Notes under the pieces: model-generated | What the model saw: the letters and a program-made list of their open reading frames with translations, nothing else | What the model was told of the DNA's origin: nothing | Databases searched by the model: none | Shown here: positions 6,413-44,210 of the stretch, in pieces | Layout of the letters: each line of letters begins with the position of its first letter | Position numbering within the stretch: position 1 is the stretch's first letter | Assembly: GCA_041397765.1 (NCBI GenBank) | Contig: JAWKWA010000008.1 | Location: 94,726-158,725 of the forward strand | Origin: Hyphomicrobiaceae bacterium | Lineage (GTDB): Bacteria > Pseudomonadota > Alphaproteobacteria > Rhizobiales > Hyphomicrobiaceae | Length of the DNA: 64,000 nucleotides | Direction: 5' to 3' | Program-made: the position numbers and the translations under genes

Positions 6413-8508
6413 TGCACGAGCGAGCGGACATTGCCATCGACGTCGGCGGCACCTTCACCGATCTGGTGCTGCGTCTCGCCTCCGGCGAGATCCGCGCCTA
6501 CAAGTCGCCGACGACCACCGGCCGCATCATCGACGGGGTCTTCGACGGCCTCGCCCAGATCGCCGAGGACCTTGGCATCCCGCGCGACCGGCTGATCGCA
6601 GGGCTTGGCCGTTTCGCCTTCGGCACCACCGCCGCGACCAATGCCATTCTCGAGGGCAAGGCGGCGGCGACCGGCCTCATCGTCACCAGGGGATTCCGCG
6701 AGACCCTCCTGGTGCGCGAGGGCGGCAAGGCCGACACCTACAACATGTATCTCGACTATCCCGCGCCCTACATTCCCCGCGCGCTGACCCTCGAGGTCGA
6801 CGAGCGCGTCAACGCCGAGGGCGGCATCGAGCGGCCGCTCGAAGAGCAGAGCGTCGTCGCCGCCATCGACGCCCTGCGCGCCGCCGGCGTCGAGGCCGTC
6901 GCCGTCTCGCTCCTGTGGTCGATCGCCAATCCGCTCCACGAGGAGCGCGTCGGCGCGATCTTTGCCCGGCACTGGCCGGAGATTCCCGTCAGCCTCGGCC
7001 ATCGCGTCAATCCTTGCGTGCGCGAGTATCGCCGCACCTCGGCCGTCGCGCTCGATGCCTCGCTGAAGCCGATCGTCGCGCGCAGCGTCGCCGATCTCGA
7101 GGAGCGGCTGGCAGCGAGCGGCTTTTGTGGCACGTTGACCTATGTCACCTCGTCCGGCGGCCAGACCTCTGCCGAAGACATCATGGCGCGCCCCGTTCAT
7201 CTCTGCTTTTCGGGTCCCGCCGCCGCACCAGAGGCGAGCCGCAGGTTTGCCGCGCTCGAGAACATCGACGGTGGCAACATCATCACCGTCGACATGGGCG
7301 GCACCAGCTTCGATGTCAGCATCGTCACCGACTGGCAGATTCCGCTCCACCGCGAGGGCAGCATCGCCGGTCACATCTTCGGCGTGCCCTCGGTCGAGAT
7401 CCACACCATCGGCGCCGGCGGTGGCTCGCTCGCGCGTGTCGACCGCGGCGGCTTCATCCACACCGGCCCCGAGAGTGCAGGCTCCCTCCCCGGTCCCGCC
7501 TGCTATGGCCGTGGCGGCACGCGCGCGACGGTGACGGACGCCAATCTGGTGCTCGGCATGCTCGATCCCGAGCGCTTCGCCGCCGGCCGCATGACGCTCG
7601 ACGCGGCCGCGGCGCGTGACGCGGTCGAGCGGGATGTCGCCCGTCCGCTCGGTCTGGTGCTTGGCGAGGCCGCCAGCCTCGTCGCGGTGAGTTGCGAGCA
7701 GAACATGGTCGGCGCCATCGCCGATCTGACGGTCAAGCGTGGCATCGACCCGCGCGACTATCTGATGGTCGCTGGTGGCGCCGCCGCCGCGCTCCACGCC
7801 GTCGCCATCGCCCGCGAGCTCGGGATCCGCCGCATCCTCGTGCCGCGCTTCGCCGGCGTCATGAGCGCCTTCGGCATCCTGACGGGCGATGTCGCCTTCA
7901 CCTTCGGACGCGCGTTGTTCGCCTCCTCGGCGACTTTCGACCATGCGGCCGTCAATGGCGTGCTCGAGGCCCTCGAGGCCGAGGGTAACGACTATCTCGA
8001 CCGCATGGGCTTTGCCGATCCGGCCTTGCGCAGTCTCGTCTTCTCGGCGGAAGCGCGCTATGCGGGCCAGGTCTGGCAGCTCACCGTGCCTCTGCCCTCG
8101 CCTCGCATCCCCGACGCCACCGCGCTTGCCGCACTCGTCGAGGCATTCCACCGTCAGCACGAGCTGCAATACGCGGTAAGGAGCGCGCTCGACGCCGTCG
8201 AGTTCACCGAATGGAGCCTGAAGGCCGTCGGCCGCCTGCCCGACGTGTCGCTCGCCGAGCGGAACATGGAGCGCGGCGCCGTCACGCCGTCGCGCCGGCG
8301 CATGGCCCGCTTTCCGTCATCGCCCGAGCCGATCGACACGCCGGTCTACGAGATCGCGGACCTGCCGGTCGGCGTCACGATCGCCGGGCCGGCGCTCGTC
8401 GAGGATCGCCTGACCACCATCGTCGTCCCGCCCGGATCGCGCGCGTCGGTGACCCGCTACGGAAACATCCTGATCGACATCGCCAGCCCCGAGGGAGGCG
8501 TCACATGA
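6412..8508 (+). CDS. hydantoinase A/oxoprolinase family protein (HyuA-like alpha subunit)
   Basis: 698 aa. N-terminal IAIDVGGTFTDLV sugar-kinase-like fold and ...TVDMGGTSFDVS... The ATG overlaps the HyuB stop by 1 nt. Confidence 0.85.
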   Translation: MHERADIAIDVGGTFTDLVLRLASGEIRAYKSPTTTGRIIDGVFDGLAQIAEDLGIPRDRLIAGLGRFAFGTTAATNAILEGKAAATGLIVTRGFRETLLVREGGKADTYNMYLDYPAPYIPRALTLEVDERVNAEGGIERPLEEQSVVAAIDALRAAGVEAVAVSLLWSIANPLHEERVGAIFARHWPEIPVSLGHRVNPCVREYRRTSAVALDASLKPIVARSVADLEERLAASGFCGTLTYVTSSGGQTSAEDIMARPVHLCFSGPAAAPEASRRFAALENIDGGNIITVDMGGTSFDVSIVTDWQIPLHREGSIAGHIFGVPSVEIHTIGAGGGSLARVDRGGFIHTGPESAGSLPGPACYGRGGTRATVTDANLVLGMLDPERFAAGRMTLDAAAARDAVERDVARPLGLVLGEAASLVAVSCEQNMVGAIADLTVKRGIDPRDYLMVAGGAAAALHAVAIARELGIRRILVPRFAGVMSAFGILTGDVAFTFGRALFASSATFDHAAVNGVLEALEAEGNDYLDRMGFADPALRSLVFSAEARYAGQVWQLTVPLPSPRIPDATALAALVEAFHRQHELQYAVRSALDAVEFTEWSLKAVGRLPDVSLAERNMERGAVTPSRRRMARFPSSPEPIDTPVYEIADLPVGVTIAGPALVEDRLTTIVVPPGSRASVTRYGNILIDIASPEGGVT

Positions 8509-14892: not shown

Positions 14893-15070
14893 AGGCTGAA
14901 GGGAGGACTCCTCTCGCGCAAGACCTCGTCGTCCGATGTCGCGCCGGTGATGGACGCGACCACCCGTCGCTTTCGGACGGGCGCGAAGGCCCGAGGACGC
15001 GATATCGAGGTGCTGACGGCGCCAGTGCCGACGCCGCCACGCCCCCCGCCCGCGGTGACAGGGACCGACC

Positions 15071-15553
15071 ATGACCGAGCAGCCGCAGCGACCTTCGAGA
15101 TTTGCAGGGATCTCCAACCGGCGCCGTGCCGTCTATGCCTTTCTCGCATCCATCCTGATCGGCCCGCCCATTGGCGGCATCTCTGTGATGCTCGGGCTCG
15201 CCCTGGCGTCCCTCGTCTCCGGCGATGCCAATTCCGGCGAGAGCGCCCTCGGCTTTCTCGCCGCGATCCCTGTCGTCGCCATCTTCTCCTACATCGCCGG
15301 CGGCCTTCAAGCGTTGGTCTGCGGCCTCATTCTCGCCATCCCGGTCGCCCGCACGGGCCATGTCGGGCTTGGCTTGACCGCCGGCGTCGCCGGCTTCGTC
15401 GGCATGTTGCGTGGCGGCGCCGTCTTGTTCGCCGGCGAGACCATCGTCCCGGCCGGGTTGCTCTTCGTCGCGCCCGCTCTGGTATCGGCCATCGGCTGCC
15501 GCGCTTTCCTGCTCTGGCTCGGCATCCTGCGGCGCCAGCCCCGGCGGGAGTGA
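15071..15553 (+). CDS. hypothetical small integral membrane protein (4 predicted TM helices)
   Basis: 160 aa ORF with hydrophobic stretches (ILIGPPIGGISVMLGLALASLV..., AAIPVVAIFSYIAGGLQALVCGLILAI...). Weak RBS aggga. No recognisable family. Confidence 0.4.
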   Translation: MTEQPQRPSRFAGISNRRRAVYAFLASILIGPPIGGISVMLGLALASLVSGDANSGESALGFLAAIPVVAIFSYIAGGLQALVCGLILAIPVARTGHVGLGLTAGVAGFVGMLRGGAVLFAGETIVPAGLLFVAPALVSAIGCRAFLLWLGILRRQPRRE

Positions 15554-15634
15554 CGGCAGCCGGGCGGGTGGCAGCGACCGGCCAAATCAGCTAGACAGGG
15601 CGGGAACAAATCCGAAACGCTGCCGGGGCCGCGC

Positions 15635-16681
15635 ATGACCGACCGCCTCTTGTCCGCCAAGCGCAAGGAGGACGACGCCGTCGAGGCGTCGATCCGGCCC
15701 CAGTCGCTGTCGGACTTCACCGGCCAGCAGCAGGCCCGCGCCAATCTCCGCGTCTTTATCGAGGCCGCCAAGGGCCGCGGCGACGCGCTCGACCATGTGC
15801 TGTTCGCCGGCCCCCCGGGCCTCGGCAAGACGACGCTCGCCCAGATCATGGCACGCGAGCTGGGCGTCGGCTTCCGCATGACGTCGGGGCCCGTCATCGC
15901 CAAGGCCGGTGATCTCGCGGCCCTTCTCACCAATCTCGAGGAGCGCGACGTCCTCTTCATCGACGAGATCCACCGCCTCAACCCGGCGGTCGAGGAGATC
16001 CTCTATCCCGCCATGGAGGACTTCCAGCTCGACCTCATCATCGGCGAGGGGCCGGCCGCCCGCTCGGTCCGCATCGATCTGGCGAAGTTCACCCTCGTCG
16101 GCGCCACCACCCGCGCAGGTCTTTTGACGACGCCGTTGCGCGACCGCTTCGGCATCCCGATCCGGCTCAATTTCTACACCGTCGAGGAGCTCGAGCTGAT
16201 CGTCGCGCGCGGCGCCCGCGTGCTCGGCTGCGCCATGAGCCCCGACGGTGCCCGCGAGATCGCCCGCCGCTCGCGTGGCACGCCGCGCATCGCCGGCCGT
16301 CTGCTGCGCCGGGTCCGCGACTTCGCCGCCGTCGGCGGTGCCGCCGTGATCGACGCCCGCGTCGCCGACGAGGCGCTGCGCCAGCTCGAGGTCGACGGCG
16401 AGGGGCTCGACTCCCTCGACCACCGCTATCTGCGCTGCATCGCCGTCAACTACGAGGGCGGCCCGGTCGGCATCGAGACCATCGCCGCGGCCCTTTCGGA
16501 GCCGCGCGACGCGCTGGAGGAGATCGTCGAGCCCTATCTGCTGCAGCAGGGCTTCATCGGCCGCACCCCGCGCGGCCGCGTCGTCACCATGAAGGCCTAC
16601 CGCCATCTCGGCCTCGCCAGTCCCGCCCGCCGCCCCGATCAGGCCGGCCTCTTCGACGGCGGCGACGGCGGGGAGGGATGA
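15635..16681 (+). CDS. ruvB: Holliday junction branch migration helicase RuvB
   Basis: 348 aa. Walker [12 protein letters not shown] and DEIHRL are typical RuvB. Confidence 0.95.
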
Positions 16682-16703
16682 GGCGGCCGGCGCCGCCCAT
16701 CGT

Positions 16704-17010
16704 TCAAGGGGCGAGCCAGATCTCGACCTCTGTGCCGTTGGCCCTCAGGCGTCCCGTCTTCATGAAGCCGTGGCGCAGATAGAACTGCTCGGGACCATGC
16801 GCGCCGGGATTGCCGTCATGCCCGCGAAGGCGGGCACCCGGACCCAGCCGATCATGCGCGGCGACAAGGGCCTTCTGGATTCCCGCCTCCGCGGGAACGA
16901 CGGAGTGGCGGAGGTGAGCGGCAGAAGCTTCACTCGCCATCACCCGGCATCGTCCCGGGGTCAACCGCTCGGCGTCCCCTCGCGATCGTCCCAACCCGGC
17001 ATCGGACCGG
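16704..17010. repeat. cluster of REP-type hairpins between convergent ruvB and lepA, overlying a probable GNAT gene remnant
   Basis: Hairpins atgcccgc-gaag-gcgggcac (about 16817-16840) and ttcccgc-ctcc-gcgggaa (about 16880-16898), plus direct repeats acccggcatcg x2. The minus-strand ORF 16704..16994 ends ...FYLRHGFMKTGRLRANGTEVEIWLAP (GNAT-like C-terminus), but its upstream part is repeat-derived (VVPAEAGIQ...LRGHDGN). Confidence 0.5.
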
Positions 17011-17040
17011 ACGACAGCCGCAGCATTTCCCGGCCACCCC

Positions 17041-18855
17041 TCAGTTCTCGTCCATCTTCAGCGCCGCGATGAACGCCTCCTGCGGGATCTCGACCTTGCC
17101 GAACTCGCGCATCTTCTTCTTGCCGGCCTTCTGCTTGTCGAGCAGCTTGCGCTTGCGGGTGATGTCGCCGCCATAGCACTTGGCGAGCACGTCCTTGCGG
17201 AGCGCCCGGATGGTCTCGCGCGCGATCACCTTGGCGCCGATCGCTGCCTGCACCGGGATCTGGAAGAGGTGCGGCGGGATCAACTCCTTCAACTTCTCGC
17301 ACATCGAGCGGCCGCGCGCCTCGGCGCGGGAGCGGTGCACGATGATCGACAGCGCATCGACCGGCTCGGCATTGACGAGGATCGACATCTTGACGAGGTC
17401 GCCCTCCTCGTAGCCGATCACCTGATAGTCGAACGAGGCATAGCCCCGGCTCACCGACTTGAGGCGATCGTAGAAGTCGAACACCACCTCGTTGAGCGGC
17501 AGCTCGTAGACCACCATCGCCCGGCTGCCGGCATAGGTGAGGTCCTTCTGCCGGCCGCGCCGGTCCTGGCAGAGCTTGAGGACCGAGCCGAGATACTCGT
17601 CCGGAACGAGGATCGTCGCCTTGATCCACGGCTCCTCGATATGGTCGATCCTGACGACGTCGGGCATGTCGGCCGGATTGTGCATCTCGACCATGGAGCC
17701 GTCGTTCATGTGCAGGTGATAGATGACCGACGGCGCCGTGGTGATGAGATCGAGGTCGAACTCGCGCTCCAGTCGCTCGGTGATGATCTCCAGGTGCAGC
17801 AGCCCGAGAAAGCCGCAGCGGAAGCCGAAGCCGAGCGCCGCCGAGGTCTCCATCTCGTAGGAGAAGCTCGCATCGTTGAGGCGCAGCTTGCCGACCGCCT
17901 CGCGCAGATCCTCGAAATCGGCGGCATCGACCGGGAAGAGCCCGCAGAACACCACCGGCTGCACCGGCTTGAAGCCCGCGAGCGGCGCATCGCAGGGTGC
18001 CCGGTCCTCCGTCACCGTGTCGCCGACCCGCGCATCGGCGACCTGCTTGATGCCGGCGGTGAGGAACCCGACCTCGCCGGGCCTCAGCTCGCCGAGCATC
18101 TGCTGCTTGGGCCGGAAAACGCCGACCCGCTCGACCGGATGGGCAGCTCCCGTCGACCAGAACTTGATCTTCTGGCCCTTCTTCAGGATGCCGTCGACGA
18201 TCCGGACGAGCACGATGACGCCGAGATAGGCATCGTACCAGCTGTCGATCAGCAGCGCCTTCAAGGGCTTTGCCGGATCGCCCTTGGGCGGCGGCAGGCG
18301 CGTCACGATGGCCTCGAGCACGTCGGCGACATTGAGCCCGGTCTTTGCCGAGATCTCGACCGCGTCGGAGGCATCGAGCCCGATCACGTCCTCGATCTGC
18401 CGCTTGACCCGCTCCGGCTCGGCCGCCGGCAGGTCGATCTTGTTCAAGACCGGCACGATCTCGAGATTGTGCTCGAGCGCGGTATAGACATTGGCGAGCG
18501 TCTGCGCCTCGACGCCCTGGCTGGCGTCGACCACCAGGATCGCCCCCTCGCAAGCCGCCAGCGACCGCGAGACCTCGTAGGCGAAATCGACATGGCCGGG
18601 CGTGTCCATCAGGTTGAGCTGATAGACGAGGCCGTCCCGGGCCTTGTAGTCGAGGCGCACGGTCTGCGCCTTGATGGTGATGCCGCGCTCGCGCTCGATC
18701 TCCATGGAATCGAGGATCTGCTCCTTCATCTCCCGGTCGCTGACGTTGCCGCAGAGCTGGATCAGCCTGTCGGCGAGCGTCGATTTCCCGTGGTCGATGT
18801 GAGCGATGATGGAGAAATTGCGGATGCGCTCGATGGGCGTTGTCGCGTCGGTCAT
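17041..18855 (-). CDS. lepA: translation elongation factor 4 (LepA)
   Basis: [31 protein letters not shown]... GTPase motifs. Start taken at MTDATT (cat at 18853-18855) within track ORF 17041..18873. Confidence 0.95.
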
Positions 18856-18956
18856 GGCGCGGACTTCTAGCATTGCCCCATGCGCCGAGAAAGAGGCGTC
18901 GGAGACAAGGACGCGCCAATCGGCAGGCGTGCGCCCGCGGGCGGTCGGGCTGGGGC

Positions 18957-19700
18957 GACGAAGTCAGGAGGCGGTGGGTCGTCGCCGTCTCGGCGCAAGC
19001 GCGCTGAGCCGCGACAGCCGCCCGTGCCGTTCTGACGCTCGAACCCATCCACACCGTCATTCCCGCGAAGGCGGGAATCCAGGGCATCTTTCCGTCTTGC
19101 GTGAGGCGCGGTGTCTGGGTGCCCGCCTTCGCGGGCAGGACGGGGAATGGTTGAGGCCGGCGAGCGCCAGGCGGCTGCGCGGCCGGTGGCTGACGGGGCG
19201 AGGACGGCGTCGGCTGCGGCGACGAAGTCGGGAGGCGGTGGGTCGTCGCCGTCTCGGCGCAATCGCGCTGAGCCGCGACAGCCGCCCGTGCCGTTCTGAC
19301 GCTCGAACCCTTCCACACCGTCATTCCCGCGAAGGCGGGAATCCAGGGCATCTTTCCGTCTTGCGTGAGGCGCGGTGTCTGGGTGCCCGCCTTCGCGGGC
19401 AGGACGGGGAATGGTTGAGGCCGGCGAGCGCCAGGCGGCTGCGCGGCCGGTGGCTGACGGGGCGAGGACGGCGTCGGTTGCGGCGACGAAGTCAGGAGGC
19501 GGTGGGTCGTCGCCGTCTCGGCGCAAGCGCGCTGAGCCGCGACAGCCGCCCGTGCCGTTCTGACGCTCGAACCCATCCACACCGTCATTCCCGCGAAGGC
19601 GGGAATCCAGGACATCTTTCCGTCTTGCGTGAGGCGCTGATCCGGGATGGTTGAGGCCGGCGAGCGCCAGGCGGCTGCGCGGCCGGTGGCAGGAGGACGA
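18957..19700. repeat. 264-bp tandem repeat, about 2.8 copies, each unit carrying two REP hairpins
   Basis: Unit starts at 18957, 19221 and 19485 (period exactly 264 nt). It begins gacgaagtcaggaggcggtgggtcgtcgccgtctcggcgca and contains cattcccgcgaaggcgggaatccag and tgcccgccttcgcgggca. A partial degenerate 4th copy follows to about 19700. Its translation gives the repeated peptide in track ORFs 18806..19654 and 18867..19733. Confidence 0.85.
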
Positions 19701-19799
19701 AGATGGTTGAAGGCGGCGGCGAGCTGACGCCACAGGCAGGCTGCGCGGTGCTGAGGACGGATGCGACAGGGCGAGGACGGCGTCGGCCGGGCCGGTCGT

Positions 19800-20516
19800 T
19801 CAGATGCGTACGAGCGCGACCGGCAGCGTGATCTCGTCGAGGGCCTTGAGATGGGGCGCGACTCTCGGATCGCTGCGCGGTACGCGGCCGGTCAGCCCGC
19901 CGAGCGCTGGATGGGCGTCCTGCCTGACCATCATCACCGGCGCCACGGCCGGATAGAGCTCGCGCCCGCGCGGATTGGCGAAGGTGAGCACGGCGCCACG
20001 GATCATCGTCTCGCCGGGCGGCGCGTGATAGGCGGTGATCATCCGCGCCGAACCGTTGTCGAGAGTGATGAAATGCAGGAAATGCGTGCCGGTCGGCACG
20101 CAGATCACGCCTCTCTGCTCATAGCCCGGATTGCCGTCCTCGAAGACGAGAGCCCGCGCCTCCCCGACCAGCGGATCGTAAGCGGATAGGCCGAGAGCGT
20201 GGCGGCATCCGTGAAGGACGGCCGGAGGCAGGTATAGGCCCCCTCGTAATAGGCGTAGATCTGCCGGTGATAGCCGCCGTAGCGGATGTCGGCGACCTCG
20301 ACGCTCGGGGCGGCCGGTTGGCTGACGGGCTCGCCGCCGAGCCCCAGCACCTCCTCGACGCGCGCGAGGGTCTTTGCCGTGAAGCTGCCCTTCAGGAGGC
20401 GGAACACGGTCGATCTCGCCGAGCAGGGCCTTGTCGGCCAGCATGCGCTGGGTCCATCCGCGCCGGTTCAGCTCGCGCTCGATACGTCGCACGACGTCGA
20501 CCGGTTGCGCGTCCAT
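19800..20516 (-). pseudogene. XRE-type HTH plus cupin domain transcriptional regulator, reading frame switches twice (about 20425 and about 20190)
   Basis: N-terminal piece from ATG at 20516 (MDAQPVDVVRRIERELNRRGWTQRMLADKALLGEIDRV) continues with FRLLKGSFTAKTLARVEEVLGLG... in the frame of track ORF 20105..20407. Diverse cupin-like sequence ...DPLVGEARALVFEDGNPGYEQRGVICVPTGTHFLHFITLDNGSARMITAYHAPPGE... then resumes in the first frame to the stop at 19800. The intervening frame-A text is Arg/Gly/Pro junk. Confidence 0.35.
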
Positions 20517-20788
20517 GGCTCCGCTTCTTCTGGTTCGGATCGGCTGTTCGTTGGGATCGGCCCGCCCGCCCGCTCTCGCCCCCGGGACCGTCGGGACCCG
20601 TCGATTTTCTCCAGTTTCCGCCAGACCCGTCAATCCCCCACGGATTCTGGCCGAACTTGGCCGGCTCCTGACCATGGCCAAAACCCCTGCAATTCCCAGA
20701 TGATGGATGTCGGCAGGCGATGAGCGAGACGTACAGCGCCGGCCGGCGAGGACGAGCCGAGACGATCTCGCCAGAGGGAGACACGTGA

Positions 20789-21139
20789 ATGACCCGCACC
20801 ATGACGACCACAGCCTTCGCCGCCCTTGCCCTGCTCGCCGCCGGTCTCGCCGGCACCCCCGAGGCTGCCGCCGCCAGCCCGAGCTTCTCCTGCAAGGGCC
20901 GCCTCACCGCCACCGAGCGGGCGATCTGCGACAGCCCGGTGCTGTCCAGCCTCGATCGGCAGATGGCGCGCGAATACGCCCACCGCATGGGCTCGTTCCG
21001 AACCTCAGAGGGCCGCTCGAGCCTCAAGGCCGCGCAGCGCGGCTGGCTCGCCACGCGCAATTCCTGCGGCGCCAGCAAGGGCTGCCTCAGGGCCGAGTAC
21101 GAGGATTGGATCTCCCAGCTCGTCGAATGGGACCTGTGA
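20789..21139 (+). CDS. secreted LprI-like (DUF1311 family) protein
   Basis: 116 aa. Signal peptide MTRTMTTTAFAALALLAAGLAGTPEAAAA. Motif pattern C..L...E..ICDSPVLSSLDRQM..Y...............RGWLATRNSC.....C....Y..WI as in lysozyme-inhibitor LprI N-domain proteins. Confidence 0.55.
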   Translation: MTRTMTTTAFAALALLAAGLAGTPEAAAASPSFSCKGRLTATERAICDSPVLSSLDRQMAREYAHRMGSFRTSEGRSSLKAAQRGWLATRNSCGASKGCLRAEYEDWISQLVEWDL

Positions 21140-21463
21140 GGTCGTCGAAGGCGGCCCCTTGCGGCCGCGATGGAATTGCCCGGTGACGCCCGCTCGGCGC
21201 CACCGGGCCCTGGATCGGCGGTGACTTGCGACGACGGGGACGTGGACCGCAGACACGGCCCCGCCGCCGAGGACACCGCCGAACGTGAAGCGCACGGGTG
21301 CCTCGCACACCCGTGCGCTTTCTCTTTTGAGTGGCGGGCGTCTCCTGGGCAAGGAATCGGAGCATGCCCGGCACGGTCGAACCGATTCCAACGCGGTCGG
21401 ACATGCTCTAAGAACCTCCGGGAGATTTCCGCGCGAGCTCTGCCGCGCCAGCCCCGGTGGCCA

Positions 21464-23139
21464 ATGACCCCTCTCGCAACCCCGCTCGACCGGATCGCCT
21501 CCGACTACGACGTCGTCGTCGTCGGCTCGGGCTATGGCGGCGGCGTCACGGCTTCGCGCCTCGCCCGTGCCGGCAAGCGCGTCCTCGTTCTCGAGCGCGG
21601 GCGGGAATACCCGACCGGCAGCTTTCCCTCGAGGCTGACCGAGCTGCGCGCCGAGCTGATGGTGACCGGCGGCCGCTTCGGGGCGGGCTCGCGGCCGGGC
21701 CTCTACGACTTCCGCTTCGGCGAGCACATCCACGTGCTGACGGGCTGCGGCCTCGGCGGCGGCTCGCTCGTCAATGCCGGCGTCGCGCTCCGCCCGGACG
21801 CCCGCGTCTTCGCCGATCCTTCTGCCTTTCCCGCCGAGATCGCCGGCGACGGCCTCATCGAGGAGGGGTTTGCCCGCGCCGCCGCCTGGATCCGCCCGGC
21901 CCGCGATCCCGAGGCCGGCACCACGACCAAGCTCGCCGCCTTCGCCAAGGCCGGCGAGGCGACCATCGGCCGGCCCGATCCCGCTCCCGTTGCCGTCAGC
22001 TTCGCCGATACCGTCAATCCGGCCGGCATCGGCCAGCCGGCCTGCACCCGCTGCGGCGACTGCTGCGGCGGCTGCAATGTCGGCGCCAAGAACACCGTCG
22101 CTCTCAGCTACCTGCCCGACGCGGTCGCCCACGGCGCCGTCATCGCGACGGAGGCCCGTGTCACCCGCCTCGAGCGCATCGGCAGCCGCTGGCACGTGCA
22201 TGTCGAGCCATTCCCCGCCGATCCGAAGGCCGCCGGCAGTTCCTCGGGCCCCATGGCCGTCGCCGCCGACATCGTCGTGCTCGCAGCGGGCACGCTCGGC
22301 TCCACCGAGATCCTGCTCCGGTCGCGCGCCGCTGGCCTTCCCCTGTCGGCCCGCCTCGGCGAAGGCTTCTCGGCGAACGGTGACATCATCGCCTTCGGCT
22401 ACAACGGCCGCGAGCGGGTCAATGCCGTCGGCATCGGCCATCCCCCGAGGGACGGTCTCGATCCGGTCGGCGCCAGCGTCACCGGCCAGATCGAGGTCGC
22501 CGATCCGGCCGATCTCGATCTCGGCATGTGCGTCCAGGAAGGCGTGCTGCCCTCCGCGCTCGGGCCGCTTCTGCCGGTTTCTTCGTGCCGGGCGGCCGTC
22601 TGCTCGGCGCCGCCCATGCCCTCATCAAGGGCGTCTATGACGGCCCGCTCGCCCGCACGCATACCTTCTTCGTCGTCAGCCACGACCGCGCGCGCGGCCG
22701 CATCGTGCTGAAGGGCGACAGGGCCGCCGTCGAATGGCCGGACGTCAATGACGAGCCGGTCTTCGCCCGGGTCGACGCCGCGCTCGAGCGGCTCTGCCGG
22801 GCGACCGGGGCGGCCTATGTGAAGAGCCCCTTGTCGGAAACCCTGATGGGCCGCCGCCCGGCGACTGCCCATCCATTGGGCGGCGCCCGCATGGCCACCG
22901 CTGCCCAGGCCGGCGTCGTCGATCACAAGGGCCGCGTCTTCGCCGGCGAGACCGGCGCGGTGGTTCATCCCGGCCTCTATGTCAGTGACGGATCGGTGCT
23001 GCCGCGTTCGCTCGGCGTCAATCCGCTCTTCACCATCACCGCCCTCACCGAGCGCGCCATGATCCACCTTGCCGAGGACTACCAGCTCCGCTTCGACACG
23101 GGACCACGTCCGCGCCGAACGGAGGCCGCCCATGGCTGA
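21464..23139 (+). pseudogene. GMC-family FAD oxidoreductase (cholesterol oxidase / choline dehydrogenase-like) with a -1 frame shift near 22575
   Basis: N-terminal part (frame of track ORF 21170..22711 from ATG 21464): DYDVVVVGSGYGGGVTASRLARAGKRVLVLERG... C-terminal part (track ORF 22528..23139): ...HPLGGARMATAAQAGVVDHKGRVFAGETGAVVHPGLYVSDGSVLPRSLGVNPLFTITALTERA. The junction lies at ctgccggtttcttc (ttt run). Confidence 0.65.
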
Positions 23140-24668: not shown

Positions 24669-25814
24669 CTATTCGCCCCGCCCCTCGAAGAAGCTCGCCA
24701 CCTTGGCGAAGAACCCGGTCGATTCCGGGCTCGTGTCCTTGCCCGAGGCCTTCTCGAACTCCTCGAGCAGCTCGCGCTGGCGCCGGGTGAGGTTCTTCGG
24801 CGTCTCGACCTCGACCTGGATATACATGTCGCCCGTCGACTTCGAGCGCAGAACCGGCATGCCCTTGTTCTTCAGCCGGAATTGCTTGCCGGTCTCGGTG
24901 CCCTCGGGGATCTTCACCCGCGTCCGCCCGCCGTCGAGCGTCGGCACCTCGACCGATCCGCCGAGTGCCGCCGACACCATCGAGATCGGTACGCGGCAGA
25001 AGATATCGGCGCCGTCGCGCTGGAAGAACTCGTGCGGCCTGATCGACAGGAAGATGTAGAGATCGCCCGGGTGTCCGCCCCGCAGGCCCGCCTCGCCTTC
25101 GCCGGCGAGACGAATGCGCGTGCCGTCCTCGACGCCGGCCGGGATGTTCACCGACAGCGTCCGCTCCTTGGTGACGCGGCCGGTTCCCGAACAGACCCCG
25201 CAGGGATTGGTGATCACCTCGCCGCGGCCCTGGCACGTCGGACAGGTCCGCTCGATGGTGAAGAAGCCCTGGCTCGCCCGGACCTTGCCCTGGCCGTGGC
25301 AGGTCGAGCAGGTGCTCGGCTGGGTGCCGGCCTTGGCTCCCGTGCCGCTGCAGGCCTCGCATTGCACGCTGGTCGGCACGCGGATTTGCGCCGTCTTGCC
25401 CTCAAAGGCCTCGCCGAGGGTGATCTCCATATTGTAGCGCAGATCGTCGCCGCGCTCGCGCGCGCTCCGCCGGCCGCCCCCACCCCCGCCGCGCCGCCCG
25501 CCCATGGCGCCGAACAGGTCGTCGAAGATGTCGGACATCGACATCCCGAAATCGGGACCGAAGCCGCCGCCGCCACCGCCCATTCCGCCCTCGAAGGCGG
25601 CGTGACCGAACTGGTCGTAGGCCGCGCGCTTCTGGGCGTCGGACAGCGTCTGATAGGCCTCGTTCAGCTCCTTGAAGCGCGAATCGGCTTCGCTGTCGCC
25701 GGGATTGCGGTCCGGATGGTACTGCTTGGCGAGCTTGCGGAAGGCGTTCTTGATGTCCTGGTCGCTCGCCCCGCGCGAAAGCCCCAGCACCTCGTAATAG
25801 TCACGCTTGGCCAT
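24669..25814 (-). CDS. dnaJ: molecular chaperone DnaJ
   Basis: [37 protein letters not shown] (J domain), a G/F-rich region, and four CxxCxGxG zinc-finger repeats. Start at cat 25812-25814. Confidence 0.95.
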
Positions 25815-44109: not shown

Positions 44110-44148
44110 CGCCCTGGATGCGCCGTCCGCGTCGGCGCCCCCCTCAGG

Positions 44149-44197
44149 ACTCACAACTCACAACTCACAACTCACGACTCACGACTCACGACTCACA
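44149..44197. repeat. heptanucleotide microsatellite (actcaca/actcacg) x7
   Basis: actcaca x3, actcacg x3, actcaca x1, contiguous and perfect. It sits in the 100-nt gap between the convergent genes 43477..44109 and 44211..44714. Confidence 0.9.
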
Positions 44198-44210
44198 TCT
44201 CTCCATCCGC

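Follow-up and report, generated by a model that had tools for sequence, protein, structure and literature searches.

The Neisseria Transformation Sequence (NTS) is a 28-nt motif (CGTCATTCCCGCGMAVGCGGGAATCYRG) that includes the 20-bp dRS3 repeat and serves as the recognition site of SsnA, a GIY-YIG nuclease of 94 amino acids that acts on this site only in single-stranded DNA (ssDNA), in a strand-specific manner, and cleaves a few nucleotides 5′ of it (Chenal et al., 2025; Nat Commun, PMC11893778). Mutagenesis in that study assigned separate roles to the nucleotides that flank the palindrome, cleavage requiring the three on its 5′ side (GTC) and binding requiring the C that directly follows it on the 3′ side. 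The NTS was there generalized to "Ssn-related motifs" (SRM), which are described by the search pattern HGTCWYN(0-2)YYVSBRHN(0-5)WNVSBRGN(0-2)RNCYNB and flank ssn homologues across phyla. In N. meningitidis, an NTS-gene-NTS arrangement reduces transformation (allelic replacement), and clusters of NTS around genes have also been reported in Rhizorhabdus and Wolbachia; the same authors draw a parallel between the NTS and the repetitive extragenic palindromic (REP) sequences and bacterial interspersed mosaic elements (BIMEs) of other bacteria. Here, we describe a tandem array of such hairpins upstream of lepA, the gene for elongation factor 4, in a 64-kb stretch of DNA (64,000 nt, hereafter the window) from a metagenome-assembled genome (MAG) of a Hyphomicrobiaceae bacterium. 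We consider it likely that Ssn-related hairpin motifs were amplified locally to give this cluster, through the recent tandem duplication of an intergenic segment that bears a hairpin doublet.

A further precedent is found in NIMEs (neisserial intergenic mosaic elements), in which dRS3 repeats are separated by repeat sequence (RS) elements of 19-214 bp that belong to many families. Arrays of this type are dynamic in length and, in 2007, were held to be absent from genera other than Neisseria (Bentley et al., 2007; PMC1797815).

Architecture of the Array and Its Hairpins

The gap upstream of lepA measures 944 nt and is occupied by the array, which starts 93 nt upstream of the lepA ATG (18855) and whose degenerate tail stops about 10 nt short of the stop codon of the next open reading frame (ORF; Table 1). 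Tandem Repeats Finder reported the repeat over 18948-19637 with a period of 264 nt, 2.6 copies, 97% matches, no indels and a score of 1338. A repeat search placed the copies in register, the first at 100%, the second at 98% and the third, over 19476-19739, at 73% ungapped identity. Units 1 and 2 differ at exactly four positions (6, 19, 52 and 100 of the unit), all within the first 100 nt, and are identical over a stretch of about 166 nt. At these variable sites unit 3 is like unit 1; it has lost hairpin 2 through a net deletion of 28 nt (37 nt reduced to 9 nt) and diverges from the unit near unit position 243, after about 215 nt. The old partial copy that follows it terminates in the junction microhomology GGCGTCGGC.

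A 264-bp tandem array upstream of lepA, beginning about 100 nt from the start codon, had been proposed in an initial annotation of this DNA, and both points are borne out by these searches; the register moves from 18957 to 18948, a shift of no consequence. The three units that were thought to be near-identical are not so, given the truncation of unit 3, and the two hairpins ascribed to each unit are present in two of the three. A degenerate fourth copy does exist, but it is merely partial. The suggestion of a recent expansion agrees with the 98% identity of units 1 and 2 and with the presence of an older, degenerate copy at one end. The concern voiced over copy number was legitimate as well: because the source is a MAG and units 1 and 2 share so long a stretch of exact identity, the number of copies may be misjudged.

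Table 1. Coordinates of the array, its hairpins and the adjoining features in the window.
Feature	Position	Strand	Basis or remark
Unit 1, complete, with hairpin doublet	18948..19211	no strand	Tandem Repeats Finder, repeat search, alignment
Unit 2, complete	19212..19475	no strand	Repeat search, alignment
Unit 3, truncated	19476..19690	no strand	Alignment
Old partial copy of unit positions ~188-264, roughly 70% identical	about 19691-19790	no strand	Repeat search, alignment
Hairpin 1 of unit 1, exact 28-nt NTS CGTCATTCCCGCGAAGGCGGGAATCCAG	19055..19082	+	Regex scan (NTS, SRM and dRS3 patterns), ssDNA fold
Hairpin 1 of unit 2, exact NTS	19319..19346	+	Regex scan
Hairpin 1 of unit 3, exact NTS	19583..19610	+	Regex scan
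Hairpin 2 of unit 1, inverted variant GTCCTGCCCGCGAAGGCGGGCACCCAG	19115..19141	-	Repeat search, regex scan, fold
Hairpin 2 of unit 2, variant as in unit 1 (GTCCTGCCCGCGAAGGCGGGCACCCAG)	19379..19405	-	Repeat search, regex scan
Convergent doublet downstream of lepA	16814..16901	16814-16841 + (SRM match); 16875-16901 - (GTCG variant)	Hairpins 33 nt apart
Unique 92-nt spacer, array to lepA start codon	18856..18947	-	Not conserved in relatives
lepA (elongation factor 4), hairpin doublets on both sides	17041..18855	-	ORF
Frameshifted ORF upstream of array	19800..20681	-	Weak XRE-type helix-turn-helix (HTH) signal

The hairpins themselves tie the array to the NTS. All three copies of hairpin 1 match the 28-nt NTS consensus exactly, and each carries the flanks reported to be critical for SsnA (GTC-ATTCCCGC...GCGGGAAT-C). 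Hairpin 1 contains the dRS3 consensus ATTCCCN8GGGAAT, and the 20-bp dRS3 repeat (ATTCCCNNNNNNNNGGGAAT) is present in three copies in the array, where, being palindromic, it matches both strands. In a complete unit, hairpins 1 and 2 are convergent and 32 nt apart, forming a doublet whose inverted arms are 29 nt long and 86% complementary; the stem of hairpin 2 is preserved by a compensated change of TT/AA to TG/CA (TTCCCGC/GCGGGAA versus TGCCCGC/GCGGGCA). The doublet downstream of lepA stands in inverted orientation and aligns to unit positions 83-196 with 77% identity. The window thus holds seven hairpins in total, at two sites, all flanking lepA, and the motif matches found in it (5 and 3) compare with about 0.01 expected by chance. 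The SRM pattern is matched by four of the seven hairpins, namely the three NTS copies and the plus-strand member of the downstream doublet, and is failed by the other three at the W position alone, where they read GTCC (19115 and 19379) or GTCG (16875).

Folded as ssDNA, the hairpins are predicted to form stems of 7-8 bp with energies of -8.3 to -9.8 kcal/mol (z -3 to -4.6), hairpin 1 having a predicted stem of 8 bp at -8.9 kcal/mol (z = -4.6). One long hairpin is also predicted for the array doublet as a whole (19045-19152; z -4.9), and the long fold of the doublet downstream of lepA is no better than that of shuffled sequence (z -0.75). The description of the array as built around palindromic hairpins therefore holds, with stems that are predicted to fold as ssDNA. 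Their description as generic REPs does not, and that label is imprecise because hairpin 1 is an exact NTS, the site of Ssn nucleases. Judged by sequence, there is little doubt that these hairpins are NTS/SRM motifs.

Distribution of the Motif and Its GIY-YIG Partners

An exact scan with the 27-mer GTCRTTCCCGCGRAGGCGGGAATCCAG, taking one genome per species, recovered at least 120 genome stretches. Among the matches listed, GC content ranges from 31 to 73% and many phyla are represented, the hosts including Pseudomonadota, Planctomycetota, Dehalococcoidia, Nitrospirota, Patescibacteria, Zixibacteria, Cloacimonadota, Gemmatimonadota and Rickettsia endosymbionts, among others. At these loci the hairpin is conserved and its flanks and spacers are not; moreover, the stem bases covary among related hairpin copies in the loci that were fetched. 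When adjacent NTS-like hairpins no more than 150 nt apart were counted across the same listed loci, 45 of 54 pairs proved convergent, with a median spacer of 32 nt. The spacers of 32 nt in the array doublets and 33 nt downstream of lepA agree with this usual convergent layout.

A nuclease gene accompanies the motif at several of these loci. A GIY-YIG ORF begins directly after the hairpin in two fetched loci, and ten Ssn-like ORFs emerged from an iterative search through the six-frame segments of 160 loci; half of these ORFs (at L106, L134, L141, L150 and L160) have a hairpin on either side, in convergent orientation. The seed ORF at L106, the one checked, carries a Pfam GIY-YIG domain (E = 2e-15). 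Because the same convergent pair also brackets ssn genes elsewhere, the short doublets may be read as versions of an NTS-ssn-NTS cassette from which the gene is absent.

The motif is also found in viral sequences. The exact 28-nt NTS occurs in 38 IMG/VR viral contigs (L127-L164), and in five of them (L134, L141, L146, L150 and L160) an Ssn-like GIY-YIG ORF adjoins NTS hairpins or sits between them. Since these five contigs pair the two components, the NTS-ssn cassette also travels on phage or prophage DNA.

The doublets of one Rickettsia endosymbiont (L043; NZ_OZ032142.1) have an additional feature: at 592-723 and at 1642-1769, their spacers hold a second, GTCAT-headed type of hairpin (GTCATCCTGAA...TTCAGGAT and GTCATGCTGAA...TTCAGCAT), which suggests nested hairpin families with a common head.

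Comparison with Described Systems

With the NTS/SRM-Ssn system (PMC11893778), the locus shares an exact NTS with oriented GTC...C flanks in hairpin 1, hairpins that are intergenic, multi-copy and placed on both sides of a gene, and a convergent pair that brackets ssn genes in other sampled genomes. It differs from that system in four respects: no ssn gene was seen in the window; the flanked gene is lepA, which has a housekeeping role and does not encode a surface protein, in a host that is a Hyphomicrobiaceae MAG; the partner hairpin, a compensated variant, departs from the SRM at one position; and the motifs sit in a near-perfect tandem repeat.

As an array, its closest analogue is the NIME (PMC1797815). 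Three repeats of the dRS3 consensus, non-coding spacers, an intergenic position next to a gene and a length that appears dynamic are all found here. NIMEs, however, are mosaics of many RS families, whereas a single 244-nt spacer (dRS3 to dRS3) is repeated in this array, and they were described as Neisseria-specific, whereas the host in this case is an alphaproteobacterium. Because it is neither mosaic nor neisserial, we do not file the array as a NIME.

Tandem arrangement of the NTS is not confined to this locus. A Dehalococcoidia MAG (L066; CBDESW010000012.1) carries tandem 107-nt units at 7714-8000, in at least 2.7 copies that run off the stored stretch. As in the array at lepA, the units stand head to tail and each has an exact NTS in direct orientation; the period of 107 nt, the single hairpin per unit and the unrelated spacer set the two apart, and the Dehalococcoidia case is an independent NTS tandem array in another phylum. 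The array at lepA is, in sum, a cluster of an already known motif type, found here in Hyphomicrobiaceae and at a housekeeping gene.

Origin of the 264-nt Unit

Outside its hairpins, the unit appears to be a purely local sequence. BLAST of the unit against all fetched loci returned similarity confined to unit positions ~97-206, which correspond to the doublet. No other copy of the unit flanks was found in the rest of the window, and the unit-specific 24-mer GGTGGGTCGTCGCCGTCTCGGCGC had no exact match in metagenome contigs; the pattern of the hetero-doublet occurs in two metagenome contigs, which are similar to the unit at the hairpins only. The remaining ~150 nt of the unit are unique among the sequences searched. 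The initial annotation had itself raised the case of a common dispersed element with no link to lepA. This applies to the hairpin core, which is dispersed over many phyla and shows no link to lepA in the loci of six relatives, but not to the full unit, which had no further copy in the sequences searched.

Copies of the short sequence GGCG(G)TCGG(G)C mark the left boundary of the array, both junctions between units and the far end of the tail, and such microhomology is what unequal recombination, or slippage, between direct repeats of this size is expected to leave. Divergence among the copies is graded, from about 70% identity in the tail to 98% between units 1 and 2, which points to at least two rounds of duplication, the last of them recent. 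We are accordingly rather confident that the array arose by local duplication.

A repeat of equal period is found in Betaproteobacteria bacterium MS502-56 (L087, 2495-3016; 2.0 copies, 84%). It has no NTS and is unlike the unit in the window, and the shared period of 264 nt is a coincidence.

The lepA Locus and Its Relatives

The LepA encoded in the window is 100% identical to MEZ5774769.1, a Hyphomicrobiaceae MAG protein encoded on a contig of 207,592 bp, and no other LepA in the database exceeds 90%. In the lepA loci of six relatives whose LepA is 86-90% identical (about 75 kb in total), the upstream gaps measure 61-176 nt and no NTS-like hairpin was found; nothing longer than 7 nt in the region upstream of lepA is held in common with them. 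Because the relatives have short, hairpin-free gaps, the array has no conserved association with lepA, and the comparison lends no support to a regulatory role. The gene neighbourhood of lepA, which in the window is convergent with ruvB, differs both between the window and the relatives (L001, L002 and L123-L126) and from one relative to another. None of the 17 genes that flank lepA in the closest relative is found in the window, save for an AMP-binding match at 212-1657 that shares 31% identity and probably represents a paralogue. Since the relatives also differ from each other, this lack of synteny is not attributable to the hairpins.

Consensus scans of 18856-19800 on either strand found no sigma-70-like or terminator-like site in the array. 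Its hairpins do not show the GC-rich stem and following T-run of an intrinsic terminator, the stems being followed by CCAGGGCATC or CCCAGACACC, depending on the strand. The effect on lepA transcription that the initial annotation thought possible, by stacked terminators or altered promoter spacing, found no support in these scans, and its reading as a whole is borne out only in part. A proximal lepA promoter, if any, would have to lie in the unique spacer between array and gene, and we see no sign that the array regulates lepA.

On its far side, the array had been said to end at the stop codon of a disrupted HTH-cupin gene. The position and the disruption stand, but the HTH-cupin identity found no confirmation, as this ORF has no Pfam cupin match and its HTH_3 match is sub-threshold (E = 0.1). 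Two frame switches are seen in this region (ORFs 19800-20681 and 20105-20407, minus strand), which is either a pseudogene or marked by assembly indels. Downstream of lepA, the 359-nt gap between ruvB and lepA holds a minus-strand ORF of 96 codons (16704-16994) that contains the downstream doublet. Its C-terminal end (EQFYLRHGFMKTG...) bears a vague likeness to the tail of an acetyltransferase, and Pfam gave no match for the ORF, whether the portion derived from the hairpins was included or not; the doublet may have split a gene of which this ORF is a remnant. Elsewhere in the window, at 44143-44201, lies a heptanucleotide microsatellite (ACTCACA x 7.6, 93% matches, or a 14-mer x 4.2).

Alternative Explanations

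In E. coli, BIME-2 elements form tandemly amplified arrays. REPs associated with REP-associated tyrosine transposases (RAYTs) reportedly carry a conserved 5′ GT[AG]G head next to the palindrome, an observation said to go back to Nunvar in 2010. The array could be a classical cluster of this kind, in which palindromes maintained by a RAYT (a Y1 transposase) form doublets known as REPINs (REP doublets forming hairpins) and are amplified like BIME-2 arrays. Indeed, its hairpins are extragenic, palindromic and clustered, its inverted doublets fold into one long, REPIN-like hairpin in prediction, and its tandem repetition resembles BIME-2; the REP/RAYT systems of E. coli and Pseudomonas also share with the NTS a dedicated hairpin-recognizing ssDNA enzyme as proposed partner. 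We nonetheless hold this explanation to be highly improbable, given that the motif is an exact NTS with the flanks CGTC... and ...CCAG, without a GTAG or other GT[AG]G head, that the identical 27-mer recurs across phyla whereas REPs are species-specific, and that genes for GIY-YIG nucleases, rather than for a Y1 transposase, are what it brackets in sampled loci (no search aimed at the latter was made there). In the window, tblastn with an E. coli RAYT sequence found no match, which is a weak test. Improbable, too, is a cis-regulatory element of lepA that would terminate or insulate read-through transcription, stabilize the transcript or set promoter spacing. The array does fill the whole upstream gap to within 93 nt of the start codon, and the RNA of the unit folds more stably than shuffled controls (z = -3.5). 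However, neither terminator-like nor sigma-70-like sites nor T-runs accompany its hairpins, the lepA genes of relatives manage with short upstream regions free of hairpins, the hairpin is a generic element dispersed over many genomes and contexts, and a like doublet is also present downstream of lepA.

The MAG origin of the sequence also invites an explanation by assembly artefact, in which a single unit or strain variants were expanded by the metagenome assembler, and the exact identity of units 1 and 2 over about 166 nt exceeds common k-mer sizes. Yet the copies can be told apart by the four substitutions between units 1 and 2, by the private deletion and further substitutions of unit 3 and by the diverged, partial fourth copy, a pattern that genuine paralogous copies typically show; artefacts, moreover, rarely combine a graded divergence of copies with junctions at which the microhomology is intact. 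We therefore rate this explanation as quite improbable. A protein-coding repeat would fit a period that is a multiple of three (88 codons) and the frames, on both strands, that stay open through the array, among them ORFs of 282-288 codons within the upstream gap and one of 884 codons that continues through lepA. Long spurious ORFs are nevertheless expected at 69% GC, and the array shows no codon-position periodicity, its GC content at the three positions being 0.70/0.68/0.78 compared with 0.65/0.37/0.92 in lepA and 0.74/0.48/0.93 in ruvB (GC3 of 0.83-0.93 in real genes here). No Pfam family was found above threshold for the array ORFs, which gives them no credible match, and the frames yield LDSRLRGNDG and IPAFAGMT, which are the palindrome translated and not protein. 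The chance that the array encodes a repeat protein is close to negligible.

Database matches in and around the array call for the same caution. A search of 15000-23000 against Rfam (E <= 1) found no family in the array. An AsrC fragment at 18776-18816 (plus strand, inside lepA) was rejected as a chance match, with 24 bits against a gathering threshold of 111, E = 4e-4 for 8 kb and coverage of 41 of 886 model positions. Residues 129-154 of the minus-strand ORF 18867-19733, where the reverse complement of the NTS is translated as LDSRLRGNDG, gave a sub-threshold match to PF23479, "Apicomplexa microprotein" (E = 3.8e-4; 20.5 bits versus 27), a family that may have been built in part from translated NTS-like hairpins, for example through bacterial contamination. 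ORFs predicted across arrays of this type are hairpin translation artefacts, and annotators should be warned by the tell-tale peptides LDSRLRGNDG, IPAFAGMT and HSREGGNP.

A Proposed Model of Local Amplification

If Ssn-related motifs were amplified locally to form the array, one doublet would have settled in the intergenic region upstream of lepA and another downstream. Unequal recombination or slippage during replication would then have copied the segment between the direct repeats GGCG(G)TCGG(G)C in tandem, beginning with an old partial duplication, followed by a recent amplification to about three units and, finally, by the loss of hairpin 2 in one of them. In a single-stranded state, such as that of transforming or conjugative DNA or of replication intermediates, each plus-strand NTS would be expected from the biochemistry of SsnA to fold into a hairpin with an 8-bp stem, which a host Ssn, if encoded, would bind, cutting the strand a few nucleotides 5′ of the motif. 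Having such motifs at either end, lepA stands in the NTS-gene-NTS configuration that in N. meningitidis reduces allelic replacement. Whether an Ssn acts on the lepA locus in this organism is a separate matter; it may do so, though we lean slightly toward doubt. As for the tandem amplification itself, it most probably arose as a neutral consequence of the repeat-rich character of this DNA.

Several observations weigh against this model. No ssn homologue (single-domain GIY-YIG, cd10448) was found in the 64-kb window by tblastn, jackhmmer or six-frame search. The hairpins of the window number seven and all adjoin lepA, and hairpin 2 and one of the hairpins downstream of lepA deviate from the SRM at a flank position that affects cleavage. 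In Neisseria, the genes found within NTS clusters encode surface proteins, whereas lepA is a housekeeping gene. Assembly of the MAG could affect the copy number and exact structure of the array, and about 700 nt of structured DNA may affect lepA transcription. In the same searches for ssn, a tblastn match at 24750-24854 was rejected, as it falls inside dnaJ.

A more far-reaching history is conceivable, in which the doublets would be gene-less derivatives of a mobile NTS-ssn-NTS cassette, comparable to miniature inverted-repeat transposable elements, that landed on both sides of lepA. The array would then record Ssn-dependent nicking 5′ of each NTS and template switching at GGCGTCGGC, and Ssn/NTS systems would actively generate NIME-type arrays in bacteria other than Neisseria and alter the surroundings of genes. 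The lepA context in the window is unlike that of all six relatives, but these also differ from one another, and we think this history unlikely.

Implications

What had been called a REP array becomes a cluster of a defined motif whose biochemistry has been characterized. The locus adds an alphaproteobacterial case of the NTS-gene-NTS layout at a housekeeping gene, and it adds a near-perfect tandem version of a NIME-like array to a class of elements once considered exclusive to Neisseria. Should the host possess an Ssn, strand-specific cutting of single-stranded DNA from the lepA region is predicted, and the locus would offer a simple natural substrate for the study of Ssn function outside Neisseria.

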